DNA from: an uncultured Methanosarcinales archaeon
GTDB lineage: Archaea; Nanobdellota; Nanobdellia; Woesearchaeales; GW2011-AR4
Reading direction: 5' to 3'
NCBI GenBank assembly: GCA_964585935.1
Contig: CAZPFO010000005.1
Location: forward strand, 1-61,403
Length of the DNA: 61,403 bases
Shown here piece by piece: positions 24,977 through 42,987 of the stretch. The position numbers were made by a program, and so were the translations under genes. The notes under the pieces were generated by a model. The model worked only from the letters and a program-made list of their open reading frames with translations. It was not told where the DNA came from and did not search any database. How positions within the stretch are numbered: position 1 is the stretch's first letter; the number at the start of each line of letters is the position of its first letter.

Positions 24977-25043
24977 AAGGTATAATCTCAAAACATATAA
25001 TCCATAACCCAAATATTTAAATATTACTTATGTTTAAGGGTAT

Positions 25044-25091
25044 ATACAACATATTGTATCTATTTTATAATTTAACCACAACATATTGTGT
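25044..25091 (+). promoter_or_regulatory. tandem NrdR boxes upstream of nrdJ
   Basis: ATACAACATATTGTAT (25044-25059) and CCACAACATATTGTGT (25076-25091), 32 bp apart, fit acaCwAtATaTwGtgt. Confidence 0.88.
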
Positions 25092-25100
25092 TTTGTCTGA

Positions 25101-28100
25101 ATGGTAAAAATGGTTGGCAAGATAACAAAACGGGATGGAAGAGTCGTCGATTTTGAAAAAGAAAAAATAACAGAAGCTATTTTCAAGGCTGCTGAGGCTG
25201 TTGGCGGCAAAGACAAGGAAACAGCAGAAAAGATTTCTGATGAGGTTATCAAAGAAGTAGAATCGAAGTTTAAAGAAAAAATACCCAGTGTTGAAGAAGT
25301 TCAGGATATAGTTGAAAAAACTTTAATTGAAAAAGGACATGCAACAACTGCAAAGGCCTATATCATTTACAGGCAGAAAAGGGCAGAGGAAAGAAAAACA
25401 AAGGCAGCAGTTATTGGCAAGGTTGTTGAGACAAAGCTTTCAGTTAATGCCCTCAAGGTTCTGAAGGAAAGATATCTTCTGAAGGATGATGAGGGAGATG
25501 TTATTGAGACTCCAAATGACTTGTTCAGGAGGGTAGCAAAAAATATTGCACATGCTGATTTGAATTATAATATCAAAAATGCAAAAGATAGTGAAGAGAA
25601 ATTCTATAATCTGATGGCTAATCTGGATTTTTTACCCAATAGCCCAACCTTGATGAATGCAGGCACAGACATACAGCAGTTAGCTGCTTGCTTTGTTCTG
25701 CCTATAGAAGACAGCATGGAAGGAATCTTCAAGACATTGATGCATGCTGCAATAATACATAAAAGCGGGGGAGGCACGGGTTTTTCTTTTTCAAGGCTCA
25801 GGTCAAGGAGCTCTCGCGTTAAATCAACACAGGGTGTTGCCTCAGGACCGGTTTCATTTCTAACCGTATATAATGCTGCAACTGATGTCATAAAGCAAGG
25901 CGGAAAAAGAAGAGGGGCTAATATGGGTATATTAAAGATTGACCATCCAGATATCCTGGATTTTATAAACTGCAAGGAAAAGAATGATGCTATAACTAAT
26001 TTTAATATTTCGGTTGCGCTGACGGAGGAGTTTGTGAGTGCTGTTGAAAAGAATGAAGAGTATAGTTTAATAGATCCTTCTAACAGGGAAGAGGTTACAA
26101 AGTTAAATGCTACTACTGTTTTTGACCTGATTGTTGCTGGTGCATGGCGCAATGGAGACCCCGGAATTGTTTTTATTGACAGGATAAACAAAGATAATCC
26201 AACTCCTGGTTTAGGGAATATAGAGGCTACTAATCCATGCGTAATTGGCAGTACCCTTATACCGACTGAATTGGGATTAATAAGGATGGAAGAATTGTAT
26301 AAAAAATACTCAGATGGGGGAGCCAGTATAGTTACTGATAACAGAGTCCCTATCCAACATGGTAGCGGAGGGCAAAAATTATTAATGTCAAATAAATCAG
26401 AAGGAGTTACCTTAAGACAGATTACAAGAGTTCTTAATAACGGAAAGAAGAAAGTTGTAAAAATAGTTACAAAATCAGGTTATGAAGTAGTTGTAACTAA
26501 AGATCATAAAGTTTTCTCATCAAATAAAGAATGGGTAAAAGTTGAGGAACTTAAAACAGGAGATAAAGTATGTATACAAAGCGGAGCAGGTGTTTTCAAT
26601 TCGGATAAAAAATTAAAAATTGATTTTGAAAAAATAAATAAATTATCAAAACGTATGAATTTGCCTGCAGAATGGTCAAAAGAGCTTGGGCAGGTTTTAG
26701 GTTGGTTGGTTGGCGATGGTTGGTTGAGAGATAAGGATGAAAACTGCAGAGCAGGTTTTGTTTTTGGAGAAGAAGATAAAAAACTTTTAGATTATTTTAA
26801 GAAGATATTAAATAAGTATTATAACCACAATATAAAAGAAATTAAAAGAGAAAACAGAGTATTTCATCTTTCTTATCATGGAAGAGGATTTGTAGAATTT
26901 TTCAAGGAATTAGGTGTAAAAGCTGTTTCATCAAAATACAAAGTGGTTCCTGAATCTATATTTACCTCAACAGAAGAAGCAGTTGTTGGTTTCTTACAGG
27001 CCTTGTTTACAGCAGACGGCACTATTGGCAAAAAGGACAAAGAGATAAGGCTAACATCATCCTCAAAAAAACTATTGAAAGGTGTTCAGCTGTTATTATT
27101 GAACATGGGCATGAAATCGAAAATTTATTCAAGGAAATATAGCAATTCTAAACCATTTACTTACAAAACAATTAATGGTGAAGACCGAGTTTATCATTCT
27201 GACGGTTTTTATTATGAATTGATAATTGATGGTTTAGGCAGGAGGTTATTTTTGGATAAAATTGGTTTTTTGAATAAAAAACAAGACAAGTTAGCTCGAA
27301 GTGTTAATTTCTGCAAGAAGATGGTCTTTGAGGATGAAATCGTATTAATCAAAGACTGTGGAGAGGAGGTTGTATATGATCTTACAGAACCTGAAACAGT
27401 CAGTTTCATAACAAATGGCATTGTGTCTCTGGATTGCGGTGAACAGCCATTATTGCCTTATGAAGCGTGTAATCTTGGCTCAATAAATTTGGGTAATTTT
27501 GTCAAAGACGAGGGTGTTGATTTGGAACGGCTCAAACAAGTTGTGCATGACTGTACCCATTTTCTTGACAATGTAATTGATATGAGCAAATATCCTATAC
27601 CTGATATAGATAAAATGGTCAGGGCTAACAGAAAAATTGGCCTGGGTGTTATGGGCTGGGCTGATATGCTTGTGCAACTTGGAATTCCTTACAACTCTGA
27701 AGAAGGGATTAAGATGGCTGATAAGATCATGGGCTTCATCAAAGAAGAGGCTGACAAGGCTTCTGTTGAGCTGGCAAAAACCAGGGGAGTATTTCCGAAC
27801 TGGAAAGACAGCATCTACAACAAGGAGAGCAAATTTTTCAAAGGGAATCATATGGAGATAAGGAATGCCACAAGAACAACTATTGCTCCTACTGGCACGA
27901 TTGGTATGATAGCGGATGCATCTGGGGGTGTGGAGCCTTTGTTTGCATTAAGCTATGTTAAGAGGGTTATGGATGGCCAGGAATTGTTTTATGTTGACAA
28001 AAATTTCAAAAAAGCGCTAGAAGAGAATAAAATTTGTGATGAAATCCTGCTGGAGAAAGTTATTGATAAGGGAACTATTGAGAATATTGAGGAGATACCT

Positions 28101-28454
28101 GAAAAGATAAAGAGGGTTTTTGTTGTTGCGCATGATATAACTCCTGAATACCATGTAAAGATGCAGGCAGCTTTCCAGAGAAATATAGACAATGCAGTCT
28201 CGAAGACAGTAAATTTCACCCATGATGCGACTGTTGATGATGTTAAAAATGTTTATATGCTTGCGCATAAATCAGGCTGCAAAGGAGTCACAATATACAG
28301 GGATGGCAGCAAGGGCGAGCAGGTTCTAAACCTGAACATTGACATCAAAAAAGAGAAAAAAGACAAATCAAAGTGCCCTGAATGCAGTGGAAGTATGGTC
28401 ATGGAAGAGGGGTGTGCAAAGTGCCATTCCTGCGGTTATTCTGTTTGCAGCTAG
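25101..28454 (+). CDS. nrdJ: class II (AdoCbl-dependent) ribonucleotide reductase with N-terminal ATP-cone, intein and C-terminal zinc ribbon
   Basis: ITKRDGRVVDF ATP-cone, FLPNSPTLMN, QQLAACFV, KQGGKRRGAN, TNP|CGEQPL split by intein, ACNLGSINL, TIAPTG, SKTVN, KGVTIYRDGS. Confidence 0.95.
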   Translation: MVKMVGKITKRDGRVVDFEKEKITEAIFKAAEAVGGKDKETAEKISDEVIKEVESKFKEKIPSVEEVQDIVEKTLIEKGHATTAKAYIIYRQKRAEERKTKAAVIGKVVETKLSVNALKVLKERYLLKDDEGDVIETPNDLFRRVAKNIAHADLNYNIKNAKDSEEKFYNLMANLDFLPNSPTLMNAGTDIQQLAACFVLPIEDSMEGIFKTLMHAAIIHKSGGGTGFSFSRLRSRSSRVKSTQGVASGPVSFLTVYNAATDVIKQGGKRRGANMGILKIDHPDILDFINCKEKNDAITNFNISVALTEEFVSAVEKNEEYSLIDPSNREEVTKLNATTVFDLIVAGAWRNGDPGIVFIDRINKDNPTPGLGNIEATNPCVIGSTLIPTELGLIRMEELYKKYSDGGASIVTDNRVPIQHGSGGQKLLMSNKSEGVTLRQITRVLNNGKKKVVKIVTKSGYEVVVTKDHKVFSSNKEWVKVEELKTGDKVCIQSGAGVFNSDKKLKIDFEKINKLSKRMNLPAEWSKELGQVLGWLVGDGWLRDKDENCRAGFVFGEEDKKLLDYFKKILNKYYNHNIKEIKRENRVFHLSYHGRGFVEFFKELGVKAVSSKYKVVPESIFTSTEEAVVGFLQALFTADGTIGKKDKEIRLTSSSKKLLKGVQLLLLNMGMKSKIYSRKYSNSKPFTYKTINGEDRVYHSDGFYYELIIDGLGRRLFLDKIGFLNKKQDKLARSVNFCKKMVFEDEIVLIKDCGEEVVYDLTEPETVSFITNGIVSLDCGEQPLLPYEACNLGSINLGNFVKDEGVDLERLKQVVHDCTHFLDNVIDMSKYPIPDIDKMVRANRKIGLGVMGWADMLVQLGIPYNSEEGIKMADKIMGFIKEEADKASVELAKTRGVFPNWKDSIYNKESKFFKGNHMEIRNATRTTIAPTGTIGMIADASGGVEPLFALSYVKRVMDGQELFYVDKNFKKALEENKICDEILLEKVIDKGTIENIEEIPEKIKRVFVVAHDITPEYHVKMQAAFQRNIDNAVSKTVNFTHDATVDDVKNVYMLAHKSGCKGVTIYRDGSKGEQVLNLNIDIKKEKKDKSKCPECSGSMVMEEGCAKCHSCGYSVCS
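26238..27434 (+). mobile_element. intein with LAGLIDADG homing endonuclease (399 aa) at TNP/CGE site of RNR
   Basis: Starts CVIGSTLI; block B VTKDHKV; LAGLIDADG motifs LGWLVGDG and LQALFTADG; block F VYDLT; ends NGIVSLD before C(+1). Confidence 0.95.
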
Positions 28455-28587: not shown

Positions 28588-29211
28588 TTGGCCAAACATA
28601 ATTTAGGCTTAGTTCATGTATATACTGGAAATGGCAAAGGGAAAACAACAGCTGCGATGGGTTTATTGCTGAGAGCTGTAGGCCAGGGGTTGAAGGTTTA
28701 TATTATCCAGTTCCTGAAGGGAGGAGCCTACACAGGGGAATTAATTTCTGCAAAAAATTTTCTTAAGAATGTTGATTTTGTGCAATATGGGAAGGCTTGT
28801 GTTAAAGAGGACAAGCAGCTAAAGCTGCAGGGCTTTGATTCAGGGTATGTTTATTTTGATTATGTGAGGGATGATATAGACTGCGGGGAGTGCAGGTCGT
28901 GCTTTCTGAATGATGAAGAGCAGAGAAAGTTAGCTAAGGATGCTTTTGAGAAATCAAGGAAAGTTCTGCAGAGCGAAGATTACGATTTAGTTGTCCTGGA
29001 TGAGGTAAACATGGCCATGCATCTGGGATTTGTTGATGTTAAGGCGGTTCTTGATTTGATTGAGAACAAGAATAAAATGACTGAGCTTGTATTAACAGGG
29101 AGAAATGCTCCAAAGGAGATAATGGAAAAAGGAGATTATGTCAGCGAGATTAAGCTCATAAAGCACCCTTACCAGAAAGGTATAGGAGCCAGAAGAGGGA
29201 TTGAGTATTGA
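28588..29211 (+). CDS. cobO: ATP:cob(I)alamin adenosyltransferase, CobO/BtuR type, with Cys-rich insertion
   Basis: VHVYTGNGKGKTTAAMG, IQFLKG, LVVLDEV, ELVLTGR, KHPYQKGIGARRGIEY; TTG start. Confidence 0.92.
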   Translation: MAKHNLGLVHVYTGNGKGKTTAAMGLLLRAVGQGLKVYIIQFLKGGAYTGELISAKNFLKNVDFVQYGKACVKEDKQLKLQGFDSGYVYFDYVRDDIDCGECRSCFLNDEEQRKLAKDAFEKSRKVLQSEDYDLVVLDEVNMAMHLGFVDVKAVLDLIENKNKMTELVLTGRNAPKEIMEKGDYVSEIKLIKHPYQKGIGARRGIEY

Positions 29212-40523: not shown

Positions 40524-40946
40524 TTATAATTTCAAATGCACTAACTCTATGCCTATTTTTTTTGCAGTCTCGAAAATTCTCTCATCGCGGTAGAATTCAC
40601 CATAGTATATTTTTTTAATGCCTGCATTAGCCATCATCTTGAAGCAGCTCCAGCAAGGAGAAGCAGTAATGTAAATCTCAGCATTATCTATGCAGACTCC
40701 GTTTTTTGCTGCCTGCAGGATTGCATTTGCTTCTGCGTGGATTGTGGCAACGCAATGGTCATTGTCCATCATATGGTCTGATTCATCGCAGTGAGGCATG
40801 CCGCGAATGCTGCCATTATAGCCTGTTGATAAAATTGTTTTATCTCTTACGATAACTGCCCCCACAAATTTCCTGTCACAAGTGCTTCTTGAAGCTACCT
40901 GCTTTGCAATGCTCATGAAATATTCTTCCCAATTCGCTCTTGTCAT
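40524..40946 (-). CDS. dCMP deaminase family protein
   Basis: RSTC...VGAVIV, STGYNG, HAEANA, SPCWSC. Confidence 0.92.
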   Translation of the reverse strand: MTRANWEEYFMSIAKQVASRSTCDRKFVGAVIVRDKTILSTGYNGSIRGMPHCDESDHMMDNDHCVATIHAEANAILQAAKNGVCIDNAEIYITASPCWSCFKMMANAGIKKIYYGEFYRDERIFETAKKIGIELVHLKL

Positions 40947-40954
40947 TTTTTAAA

Positions 40955-41500
40955 TTATTTATTTTTTATTAATTGGTCAATTTTTTTATGCAAACTTTCT
41001 AATGGACCATCATTCATTATTATTTTATCAGCTGCCTTGACACACTCGTTAAGCTGTTGCCCGGTCTTGTTTTTAAAATTTTCCCTTTCCTCCAGTTCCT
41101 TAAACTGCTCAATGGTTTTTGCATCTCCTAAACGGCCTCTTTCTTTTGACCTTTGAAACCTTAATCCTACCGGAGCGTCAACTGCTGCCAGGATAAAGCC
41201 TTTGTTTTTCCTTAATTCGTTTATTTCTTCCAGATTCCTTATACTGTCCACTGCAAAATTTTTATTTTTGTTTTCTTTTATTTTTTTATTGATTTTTTTT
41301 GCTAAATAGTTTGCTCCAGATTCTTCCCTTAACTCATTGCCGAGATTGATTAAATTTTCCCTTGTTGGCTCTAAGCATCTTTCTCCAGCCTCTTCCCTTA
41401 ATTCATCTGATAATGAGAGATAGATAAATCCTTTTTTTTTGAGGTAATTTGCAGCTTCTCCTTTTCCTGCTGCGTTTTTTCCTGTTAAGCCCAGTATCAT
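40955..41500 (-). CDS. P-loop nucleotide kinase-like protein (dephospho-CoA/NMP kinase fold)
   Basis: GLTGKNAAGKG Walker A, VDSIRNLEE, AVDAPVGLRFQR. Confidence 0.75.
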   Translation of the reverse strand: MILGLTGKNAAGKGEAANYLKKKGFIYLSLSDELREEAGERCLEPTRENLINLGNELREESGANYLAKKINKKIKENKNKNFAVDSIRNLEEINELRKNKGFILAAVDAPVGLRFQRSKERGRLGDAKTIEQFKELEERENFKNKTGQQLNECVKAADKIIMNDGPLESLHKKIDQLIKNK

Positions 41501-41955
41501 CTTATCTTCTTCTCTAATTTCTTCAATTCATCCTTGAACGAGGAAATGTCCTGGAATTCCCTGTAAACAGATGCAAACCTTATGTAAGCTACTTTGTCAA
41601 GTTTCTTGAGCTTTTTCATTATCAATTCGCCAATCTCCTTGCTCGTGATCTCTTTTTTGTTCTTTGCCTTGAGCTCTGCTTCGATACTGTCGATTGTTTT
41701 CTCAATCTCTTCCATGCTTACTGGCATTTTTTCGCATGCCTTAATAATTCCGTTCTTCAGTTTTTTGCTGTCAAAGCGCTCCCTTCTGCCGTCTTTTTTT
41801 ACAACAAAGATGTCAATTGTTTCTGTCCTTTCGTAAGTTGTGAAGCGTTTTTTGCACTTTAGACATTCTCTTCTCCTTCTTGTAACTTCCAAATCTTCAG
41901 TCTCTCTTTTATCAAGAACCTTTGTTTCAGGATTAGAGCAAAAAGCACATTTCAT
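41497..41955 (-). CDS. nrdR: transcriptional repressor NrdR
   Basis: MKCAFC...TKVLDKR...RRRRECLKCKKRFTTYE zinc ribbon + ATP-cone (VVKKDGRRERF), DKVAYIRFASVYREF. Confidence 0.96.
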   Translation of the reverse strand: MKCAFCSNPETKVLDKRETEDLEVTRRRRECLKCKKRFTTYERTETIDIFVVKKDGRRERFDSKKLKNGIIKACEKMPVSMEEIEKTIDSIEAELKAKNKKEITSKEIGELIMKKLKKLDKVAYIRFASVYREFQDISSFKDELKKLEKKIR

Positions 41956-42003
41956 TTTCTATATATAGTTGGCTTGTATTATTCGACCCCCAATATGTTG
42001 TAT
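41956..42003 (-). promoter_or_regulatory. tandem NrdR boxes upstream of nrdR operon
   Basis: Minus strand ATACAACATATTGGGG (42003-41988) and CAACTATATATAGAAA (41971-41956), cores 32 bp apart; TATA TTTAAATA at 42020-42013. Confidence 0.8.
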
Positions 42004-42075
42004 GCTGTTGTTTATTTAAAGATTTTGTTTTAAAAAACATTAACCTTAAATATAAAATAAAAAACTTAACAGGAA

Positions 42076-42987
42076 ATGAACAAAAAACCACACATTGGCG
42101 GCCAGGCTGTTATAGAAGGAGTTATGATTAAGTCCGAGGATAATTATGTTGTTTCTGTAAGGAAAAAGAAGAAGATAATAACTAAAAAAGAAAAAATAAT
42201 AAGAAAAAGACCAAAAATAAAAAAGCTGCCTTTTATCAGGGGATTTGTAAACCTGCTTGATATGCTGGTTATAGGCACAAAAACATTAATATGGTCTGCT
42301 GAGCAGCAGGAAGACAAGAAAGAAGAGAAGATAAGCAAGATGGAAATTTTTTCAATTATCGGGTTTTCTTTTTTATTCGCAATTCTTTTTTTTGTGGCGC
42401 TGCCTTATTTTCTGACTGTTTTGCTCGGAGTAAAGGAAGAAACAAAACCATTGATATTCAACTTGATAGATGGGGTTATAAGGATAAGTTTTTTCCTGCT
42501 TTATATTTTCGGGATTTCTTTTTTAAAGGATGTTAAAAGGCTTTTTCAGTATCACGGGGCTGAGCACAAGGCAGTCAATTGTTTTGAGGCTGGGAAGAAA
42601 CTCACATTGGAGAATGTTAAAAAATACTCAACTCTGCATATAAGGTGCGGTACAAATTTTATAATGATAACTTTAATAATAAGCATACTTGCCTTTTCAA
42701 TCATACCTGCGGTTGTGATGTATTCATTTCCCGGCTTTCTGGAGTTTAATTTATGGCTCAGGAAAATTATTTTGTTTTTGTTGAGGTTAACGATGCTGCC
42801 CCTGGTAGCAGGAACTTCTTATGAGTTCATAAAGTTAAGCGACAAATTCAAGAATAACAAGATAATGACTGCTGCATCAAAGCCCGGCCTTTGGCTGCAA
42901 AAAATAACAACAAAAGAGCCAAATAAGAATCAGATTGAGGTTGCTATATCTTCAGTAAAGAGCATATTATCACTGGAAAAAAAATAA
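42076..42987 (+). CDS. DUF1385 family membrane protein (putative metalloenzyme)
   Basis: IGGQAVIEGVM, PFIRG, FQYHGAEHK, RCGTNF, LQKITTKEP. Confidence 0.9.
   Translation: MNKKPHIGGQAVIEGVMIKSEDNYVVSVRKKKKIITKKEKIIRKRPKIKKLPFIRGFVNLLDMLVIGTKTLIWSAEQQEDKKEEKISKMEIFSIIGFSFLFAILFFVALPYFLTVLLGVKEETKPLIFNLIDGVIRISFFLLYIFGISFLKDVKRLFQYHGAEHKAVNCFEAGKKLTLENVKKYSTLHIRCGTNFIMITLIISILAFSIIPAVVMYSFPGFLEFNLWLRKIILFLLRLTMLPLVAGTSYEFIKLSDKFKNNKIMTAASKPGLWLQKITTKEPNKNQIEVAISSVKSILSLEKK

Follow-up and report, generated by a model that had tools for sequence, protein, structure and literature searches.

Introduction

Is the RNR gene nrdJ of this uncultured Woesearchaeal (DPANN) archaeon controlled by a repressor of bacterial type, NrdR, acting from tandem boxes that lie immediately behind an archaeal TATA box? 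Nearly all work on NrdR concerns bacteria, where part of the interest is in the repressor as a target for antibacterials. The repressor is present in 77% of bacterial and 22% of archaeal genomes (PMC13584703), "a few archaeal RNRs" are held to be under its control (PMC12051234), and papers of 2022 and 2025 describe it as rare in archaea. Archaeal NrdR proteins as such have already been published (PMC9110341, PMC13584703, PMC3019208), and public annotation already gives the name NrdR to the DPANN proteins considered here. Our literature search returned no paper combining NrdR with DPANN archaea and none describing the placement of the boxes relative to an archaeal TATA box, a 2026 MMBR review (PMC13602944) that may cover archaeal boxes lying outside the scope of the search.

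The window analyzed here is the whole stretch of 61,403 nucleotides. The original prediction, made from its letters, held that two near-palindromic 16-mers between a TATA box and the start of nrdJ are tandem NrdR boxes of bacterial type, that box 1 covers the expected transcription start, and that a bacterial repressor and its operator geometry have been grafted onto archaeal transcription. Using consensus counts, a position matrix, promoter calibration and comparison with related genomes, we examined the operator, the repressor and their setting.

Results

The nrdJ operator and its target gene

The two 16-mers, spaced 32 bp start to start, stand between the TATA box and the nrdJ start with the coordinates and sequence originally given for them, which confirms the observation. 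The promoter, the operator and the genes behind them comprise the following features:

25008-25015, plus strand: purine-rich, BRE-like stretch CCCAAATA directly 5' of the nrdJ TATA box, a putative BRE
25016-25023, plus strand: TATA box TTTAAATA of the nrdJ promoter, read in the sequence
25044-25059, no strand assigned: NrdR box 1, ATACAACATATTGTAT, 13/16 consensus matches, matrix score 19.9 bits (genome rank 2)
25060-25075, no strand assigned: linker between the nrdJ boxes, 16 bp, conserved in length but not in sequence
25076-25091, no strand assigned: NrdR box 2, CCACAACATATTGTGT, 14/16 consensus matches, matrix score 22.5 bits (genome rank 1)
25100-25109, plus strand: AATGGTAAAA, the version here of a conserved leader element, AGTAGTRAAA, found 3' of box 2 in relatives
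25110-28454, plus strand: nrdJ, class II (B12-dependent) RNR with an N-terminal ATP-cone and a LAGLIDADG intein
28588-29211, plus strand: cobA, ATP:corrinoid adenosyltransferase (PF02572; TIGR00708, 177.9 bits)

Against the consensus acaCwAtATaTwGtgt, the operator consists of two partially palindromic 16-bp boxes (13/16 and 14/16) that have ACAACATATTGT in common, start exactly 32 bp apart and end, with the last base of the pair, 18 nt 5' of the nrdJ ATG at 25110. Each box matches the regular expression that PMC12051234 uses for the core, C.[AT].A[AT].[AT].G, the linker measures 16 bp at the nrdJ operator and also at the nrdR operator described below, and positions C4, A6, A8/T9, T11 and G13 are conserved in the boxes, with motif and geometry matching the published operator (PMC13584703, PMC12051234). 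In sequence, linker length and fit to the regular expression, the boxes are thus of the bacterial type claimed for them, and their binding by NrdR is predicted.

The target gene was identified as class II, as originally proposed, by TIGR02504 (721 bits, cut-off 400) and NF006417 (963 bits, cut-off 961), and its product contains the Pfam domains ATP-cone, Ribonuc_red_lgN, Ribonuc_red_lgC, intein and LAGLIDADG. The nrdJ ORF has an alternative in-frame ATG at 25101; in an alignment, the ATG at 25110 coincides with the start codon of a same-genus relative. Downstream, cobA lies 3' of nrdJ and its product makes the NrdJ cofactor. Neither NrdD nor a second RNR was found in the 85%-complete assembly.

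Two further observations concern the gene and its leader. The intein, with its LAGLIDADG homing endonuclease, interrupts nrdJ at approximately 26283-27425 (residues 395-775 of the 25101 ORF), and nrdJ orthologues in relatives have 700-820 aa and are without an intein. The AGTAGTRAAA element, about 10 nt long, is found 8-9 nt 3' of box 2 in most family members (L061-L095; window positions 25092-25109) and holds this position after box 2 whatever the distance to the start codon. It was considered as a Shine-Dalgarno sequence and rejected as such, the usual motif of this genome being GAGGTGA.

Distinctiveness of the boxes in the genome

With at most one mismatch allowed, ACAACATATTGT occurs three times in the window vs 0.39 expected, and the third occurrence lies just upstream of nrdR. 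The nrdJ pair matches the published consensus ACACWATATATWGTGT at 27/32 positions and is the sole pair in the 1.16-Mb genome to reach at least 26/32 at any spacing from 16 to 69. The loose regular expression of PMC12051234, applied genome-wide, gave approximately 6000 single cores and, whatever the spacing, numerous pairs; because it is uninformative in a genome of 35% G+C, consensus counts and a log-odds matrix built from the boxes of relatives only were used instead. Such a genome-wide matrix scan had been suggested as a check on the original prediction, and among the 1,157,815 positions scored, nrdJ box 2 (22.5 bits) and nrdJ box 1 (19.9 bits) rank first and second, followed in third place by the box upstream of nrdR (17.6 bits). 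Eight of the next-best single matches, whose context was examined for extra regulon members, yielded none: seven are intragenic and one is an AT-rich intergenic match unrelated to nrd genes.

The NrdR protein and the promoter of its own gene

The nrdR gene, expected in the same window, is encoded about 16 kb from nrdJ on the opposite strand, in the following arrangement:

40524-40946, minus strand: dCMP deaminase (dCMP_cyt_deam_1; ComEB-like)
40955-41500, minus strand: P-loop kinase-like gene (AAA_17; PRK08356), overlapping nrdR by 4 nt
41497-41955, minus strand: nrdR, Zn-ribbon and ATP-cone repressor (TIGR00244, 197.6 bits)
41956-41971, no strand assigned: weak proximal NrdR box, minus-strand CAACTATATATAGAAA, matrix score 1.1 bits, abutting the nrdR ATG
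41988-42003, no strand assigned: distal NrdR box upstream of nrdR, minus-strand ATACAACATATTGGGG, matrix score 17.6 bits (rank 3), also obtained independently from the pattern search
42013-42020, minus strand: nrdR TATA box, TTTAAATA, its first base 17 nt ahead of the distal box

The protein, of 152 aa, scores 197.6-198.3 bits against TIGR00244 (cut-off 124.65), covering model positions 1-147 of 147, and consists of PF22811 (residues 1-42) and PF03477 (residues 50-136). Residues 1-151 align to a solved chain, 9fzf_A, with E 2.6e-43; the depositors' name for this chain is "Transcriptional repressor NrdR" only, and we take it to be E. coli NrdR. The zinc ligands C3, C6, C31 and C34 are kept in two CxxC motifs, as are D15, R17, R26-R29 and R37, and position 12 is Lys rather than Arg, a conservative change. 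D15, R17, RRRR 26-29, R37 and R12 are DNA contacts in the S. coelicolor NrdR complex (PMC9110341). The ATP-cone lysine that aligns to K53 of the solved chain is present, and mutation of K53 abolishes DNA binding of E. coli NrdR (PMC9110341). In these features the protein is intact, and it is predicted to undergo ATP/dATP-dependent oligomer switching and to bind DNA.

Upstream of nrdR, the core of the proximal box, CTATATATAG, fits the published regular expression and lies exactly 32 bp from the distal box, and this two-box layout is kept, in a weaker form, in the same-genus relative (L020). On the plain consensus count, the pair reaches 23/32, that is, the background level. The 4-nt overlap of nrdR with the kinase-like gene and the 8-nt gap between the latter and the dCMP deaminase gene make the three genes a probable operon. 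NrdR probably represses its own gene, together with the kinase-like and dCMP-deaminase genes, through a second, weaker operator; this autoregulation is less certain than the control of nrdJ because the pair scores at background and the proximal box is weak. The predicted regulon comprises nrdJ (possibly with cobA), nrdR, the kinase-like gene and the dCMP deaminase gene.

The kinase-like gene and the dCMP deaminase gene also match the N- and C-terminal parts, respectively, of NF041025, "anti-phage dCTP deaminase," with scores (49 and 77 bits) that fall well short of the 400-bit cut-off, and a housekeeping pair for dNTP balance within the NrdR regulon is a likelier reading than an anti-phage system. 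On the other side of the nrdR promoter, a divergent DUF1385 gene (42076-42987) has its own TATA-like sequence, TTAAATAT, about 30 nt before its ATG (window positions 42043-42078), and is probably leaderless; it lies outside the NrdR operator.

Archaeal identity and promoter calibration

The archaeal setting assumed in the original prediction agrees with the gene content of the genome and of its relatives. TFB is encoded, with both cyclin repeats in a 320-aa ORF, and the TFB family matched only the four archaeal genomes among the controls. Searches of this 85%-complete assembly for TBP and 16S rRNA gave no match; with the assembly incomplete, archaeal identity was established via TFB, the TBP of relatives (found in 20/20 searched, the same genus included) and named homologues. 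The nearest named NrdR homologues belong to Candidatus Woesearchaeota, Nanoarchaeota and Aenigmarchaeota archaea, and among the best 120 NrdR homologues none is named as bacterial; about one fifth carry a source name, in every case that of a DPANN-type archaeon.

Genome-wide, TTTAWATA is enriched approximately 20-fold between -40 and -21 relative to ORF starts, as is characteristic of archaeal TATA promoters. Its first T stands 28-33 nt (mode 30) before the ATG in approximately 75/871 long ORFs, from which a large share of the genes appears to be leaderless. This TATA-to-ATG calibration puts the predicted start of nrdJ transcription at about 25046, which falls within box 1, in line with the original expectation. 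The nrdJ operator begins 28 bp after the first TATA base and covers about -2 to +46 when numbered from that start. By the same calibration, the TATA box at 42020-42013 puts the predicted nrdR start at about 41990, at the 3' edge of the distal box. The predicted leaders, about 64 nt for nrdJ and about 35 nt for nrdR, are filled by operator and constitute exceptions among largely leaderless genes. A search of sequencing runs located the stretch in three DNA runs (hydrothermal-vent metagenome) and in zero RNA runs.

Conservation of the operator and its co-occurrence with nrdR

NrdR was detected above the curated cut-off in 46/61 close relatives and in 314/401 (78%) genomes drawn evenly from the phylum. 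Upstream of the gene for the ATP-cone RNR, two boxes exactly 32 bp apart were found in 19/20 relatives from the same family and order (25-31/32 consensus matches), and in a second batch boxes preceded RNR genes or nrdR-RNR operons in 18/20 further relatives. The start-to-start spacing of the boxes in relatives is 32 bp at 33/37 sites and 31 bp at the other 4/37, the clade motif, A-Y-A-C-W-A-Y-A-T-R-T-W-G-T-R-K, equals the bacterial consensus, and the linker sequences differ among relatives.

The original prediction would have been undermined by an absence of the motif upstream of orthologous nrd genes in relatives that contain nrdR. The outcome favours the prediction. Among the closest nrdJ orthologues, those of the nrdR-positive genomes G001 (26/32) and G057 (25/32) have boxes, and in two other nrdR-positive genomes (G043 and G040) nrdR and nrdJ form an operon whose boxes precede nrdR. 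In the five nrdR-less relatives (G053, G059, G038, G049 and G055), the orthologous gene has no boxes, the best pairs there scoring 18-21/32, which is background. Two nrdR-positive genomes (G050 and G010) also showed no boxes at the RNR gene examined.

To this was added a strict search of the 401 phylum genomes with a tandem pattern of 16 nearly invariant bases, for which the reversed pattern served as the control. The strict pattern was found in 49/401 genomes vs 1/401 for the reversed control, usually once per genome, and of the 44 newly fetched sites, 40 immediately precede nrdR, an nrdR-RNR operon or an RNR gene. NrdR is encoded in 46/49 pattern-positive genomes vs 268/352 of the others (Fisher p = 0.002).

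The promoter context is likewise recurrent. A perfect TTTAWATA is found within 70 nt upstream of box 1 at 53/81 sites, and at 75/81 with one mismatch allowed; an A-rich BRE-like stretch precedes this TTTAWATA, and at the same promoter in relatives the sequence immediately before TTTAAATA reads cAAAA(n)n. The distance from the TATA box to box 1 has a median of 27 bp and an interquartile range of 25-35, and the operator invariably follows the TATA box closely without overlapping it or the BRE.

Several related RNR genes differ in arrangement. In many family members there is a second RNR paralogue, class II-like and lacking an ATP-cone, and this copy has no boxes (L042-L051); only the cone-bearing copy is boxed in those family members, although two f43 genomes (L129 and L130) have boxes before a cone-less RNR. 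Full-length NrdR matches were obtained inside frames of 780-855 aa in eight genomes (G205, G142, G376, G194, G075, G190, G339 and G421), and at three loci (L119, L121 and L149) the NrdR Zn-ribbon runs straight into the ATP-cone of the RNR. Both arrangements resemble fusions of NrdR to RNR, and in the cases fetched they are preceded by tandem boxes.

Proposed mechanism of repression and alternative explanations

From the sequence, statistics, conservation, nrdR co-occurrence and promoter geometry described above, it is very probable that the nrdJ boxes constitute a genuine NrdR operator, at which bound NrdR would most likely block RNA polymerase after TBP and TFB have bound; what we infer is that NrdR binds and does so in response to nucleotides, precisely where transcription starts, and at which point initiation would be stopped. 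By analogy with bacteria, NrdR would assemble into a tetramer as dATP rises relative to ATP, and the two Zn-ribbon pairs of the tetramer would bind the two boxes, three helical turns apart. With an operator extending from about -2 to +46, bound NrdR would leave TBP and TFB free to bind and would occlude the start site and the DNA needed for loading of RNA polymerase and for melting, so that the sole detectable RNR of the cell would be switched off. Through the second operator, NrdR probably also represses nrdR, the kinase-like gene and the dCMP deaminase gene.

A different possibility, which we consider improbable, is that NrdR binds the boxes and acts after initiation, either as a roadblock to the elongating polymerase in the first 50 nt, with two DNA kinks of about 90 degrees, or with the palindromes serving as leader-RNA hairpins. 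All of the operator does belong to the leader that is predicted to be transcribed (about +1 to +46), box 1 begins at +2 to +10, past the start site, in about one third of related sites, and with some 64 nt of predicted leader nrdJ would stand out in a genome whose genes mostly appear leaderless. At this locus, however, box 1 covers -2 to +14, the region that is melted and loaded by polymerase, which makes occlusion at initiation the simpler reading, and in bacteria, too, NrdR sits over both the polymerase site and the transcription start (PMC9110341). The hairpin version was addressed through the mirror positions 1/16, 2/15, 5/12 and 7/10 in 135 distinct boxes: Watson-Crick complementarity equals or scarcely exceeds what independent half-sites would give (observed vs expected, 0.46 vs 0.46, 0.56 vs 0.47, 0.58 vs 0.48 and 0.30 vs 0.35), which argues against selection for a hairpin in RNA or DNA. 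Variable mirror positions that do not covary fit a protein site bound by a dimer rather than a hairpin, and the RNA-structure reading of the palindromes was rejected for lack of Watson-Crick covariation. An Rfam search of the window gave no match.

Two other readings concern the identity of the promoter and of the boxes themselves. The linker here, CTATTTTATAATTTAA, is AT-rich and TATA-like, and the true promoter could be the TATA-like TTTATAAT at about 25064 within it, in which case the boxes would flank the TATA box and NrdR would compete with TBP. This is very unlikely: TTTATAAT has two mismatches to the TATA consensus of the genome, and a perfect TTTAWATA with its A-rich BRE-like stretch is conserved upstream of box 1 at 53/81 sites. 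In many relatives the linker is rich in GC, as in gccgacgacatcttgt and atagacgacatctcaa, and we rejected a promoter inside it because it is not conserved. Given a 35% G+C genome in which the loose regular expression matches about 6000 times, one might also regard the palindromes as chance AT-rich repeats, or as the site of another regulator, with NrdR acting elsewhere or inactive. That seems scarcely credible for a pair that is unique in its genome, and the strict pattern was met in 49/401 genomes against 1/401 for the reversed control, at sites almost always directly upstream of nrdR or RNR genes. Boxes are absent where nrdR is absent (five relatives), and NrdR keeps its DNA-contact residues, with Lys for Arg at position 12. 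We accordingly retain occlusion of the polymerase by operator-bound NrdR as the preferred explanation.

Discussion

The reference system for such an operator is S. coelicolor NrdR on the nrdRJ and nrdAB operators (cryo-EM structures 7P37, 7P3F and 7P3Q; Rozman Grinberg et al. 2022, PMC9110341), where NrdR loaded with dATP and ATP binds both boxes. The locus described here has in common with it a pair of 16-bp, partially palindromic boxes separated by about three helical turns and placed over the start site (here, the predicted one), a class II RNR as the target, a Zn-ribbon and ATP-cone protein with D15, R17, RRRR 26-29 and R37, and likely self-regulation of nrdR. Unlike S. coelicolor, with its sigma-70 -35/-10 promoter, the archaeal operator is attached to a BRE/TATA promoter served by TBP, TFB and the archaeal RNA polymerase. 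The single operon of S. coelicolor also contrasts with nrdR and nrdJ being 16 kb apart here, nrdR-RNR operons being found in many relatives within the phylum, and residue 12 is Lys here and Arg there.

Among solved structures, the best match is NrdR represented by chains 9FZF, 9FVR, 9FXK and 9GEX (PMC12176259), which we take to be those of E. coli. In E. coli, with its nrdAB, nrdHIEF and nrdDG operators, the box consensus is the same as here, and the linker of the archaeal operator belongs to the 15-16-bp ("short") class. The three RNR operons of E. coli, of classes I and III, differ from the one detectable class II RNR of this archaeon, as does the basal transcription machinery.

MDR1 of Archaeoglobus and LrpA and Phr of Pyrococcus are archaeal repressors whose binding 3' of the TATA box prevents the recruitment of RNA polymerase. 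The nrdJ operator resembles theirs in lying just 3' of the BRE/TATA over the start site, where a repressor would presumably leave TBP and TFB unaffected and block the loading of polymerase. Those three are helix-turn-helix proteins with a single operator, whereas NrdR is a Zn-ribbon/ATP-cone tetramer that needs two boxes, with the DNA kinked at each.

Within archaea, the closest precedent is found in the haloarchaeal nrdR-nrdAB operons (Lundin et al. 2010, PMC3019208), which likewise have an archaeal NrdR beside or together with RNR genes. The haloarchaeal operons are of class I and were imported from bacteria as a unit by horizontal transfer, some being on plasmids (PMC3019208). In the phylum studied here, unlike in haloarchaea, nrdR is near-universal (314/401) and stands over resident class II and other, untyped RNR genes.

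This distribution bears on the proposal that a bacterial repressor and its operator were "grafted" onto archaeal transcription. In its substance the original prediction is borne out; a recent or unusual import is at odds with nrdR in 314/401 phylum genomes and with the lack of named bacteria among its best 120 homologues. The word overstates the case because the nrdR circuit is old and phylum-wide, and because bacterial-type regulators on archaeal promoters are the rule. Indeed, bacterial-type regulators working on the archaeal basal machinery are the norm, and nothing is overturned here. The nrdJ operator is a well-conserved example of a known circuit, old and phylum-wide, and not a new circuit.

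One lead goes beyond this known circuit. The TATA-to-box-1 distances cluster at about 17, 24-29 and 35-39 bp, with a raw Rayleigh p of about 3e-7 for a 10.5-bp period; after dereplication by family, the p value for phasing is about 0.02-0.07 and not specific to 10.5 bp. We regard it as doubtful, albeit conceivable, that the NrdR operator is in helical phase with the TATA box in this phylum, as a TBP/TFB-specific repression geometry with no bacterial counterpart. If true, the kinked NrdR-DNA complex would be held on a fixed face relative to the TBP-bent promoter, and 5' leaders consisting almost entirely of operator would have been gained in otherwise largely leaderless genomes.

In one DPANN phylum, NrdR is as common as in bacteria (78% of the 401 sampled genomes), and the canonical operator is kept intact immediately 3' of the archaeal TATA box. 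The phylum thereby offers a clean natural system in which a DNA-bending Zn-ribbon/ATP-cone repressor meets a eukaryote-like pre-initiation complex, and for in vitro work the locus provides a small protein along with DNA fragments of defined extent. For annotation, the value of the finding is that a control of dNTP supply is identified in organisms with very few regulators.
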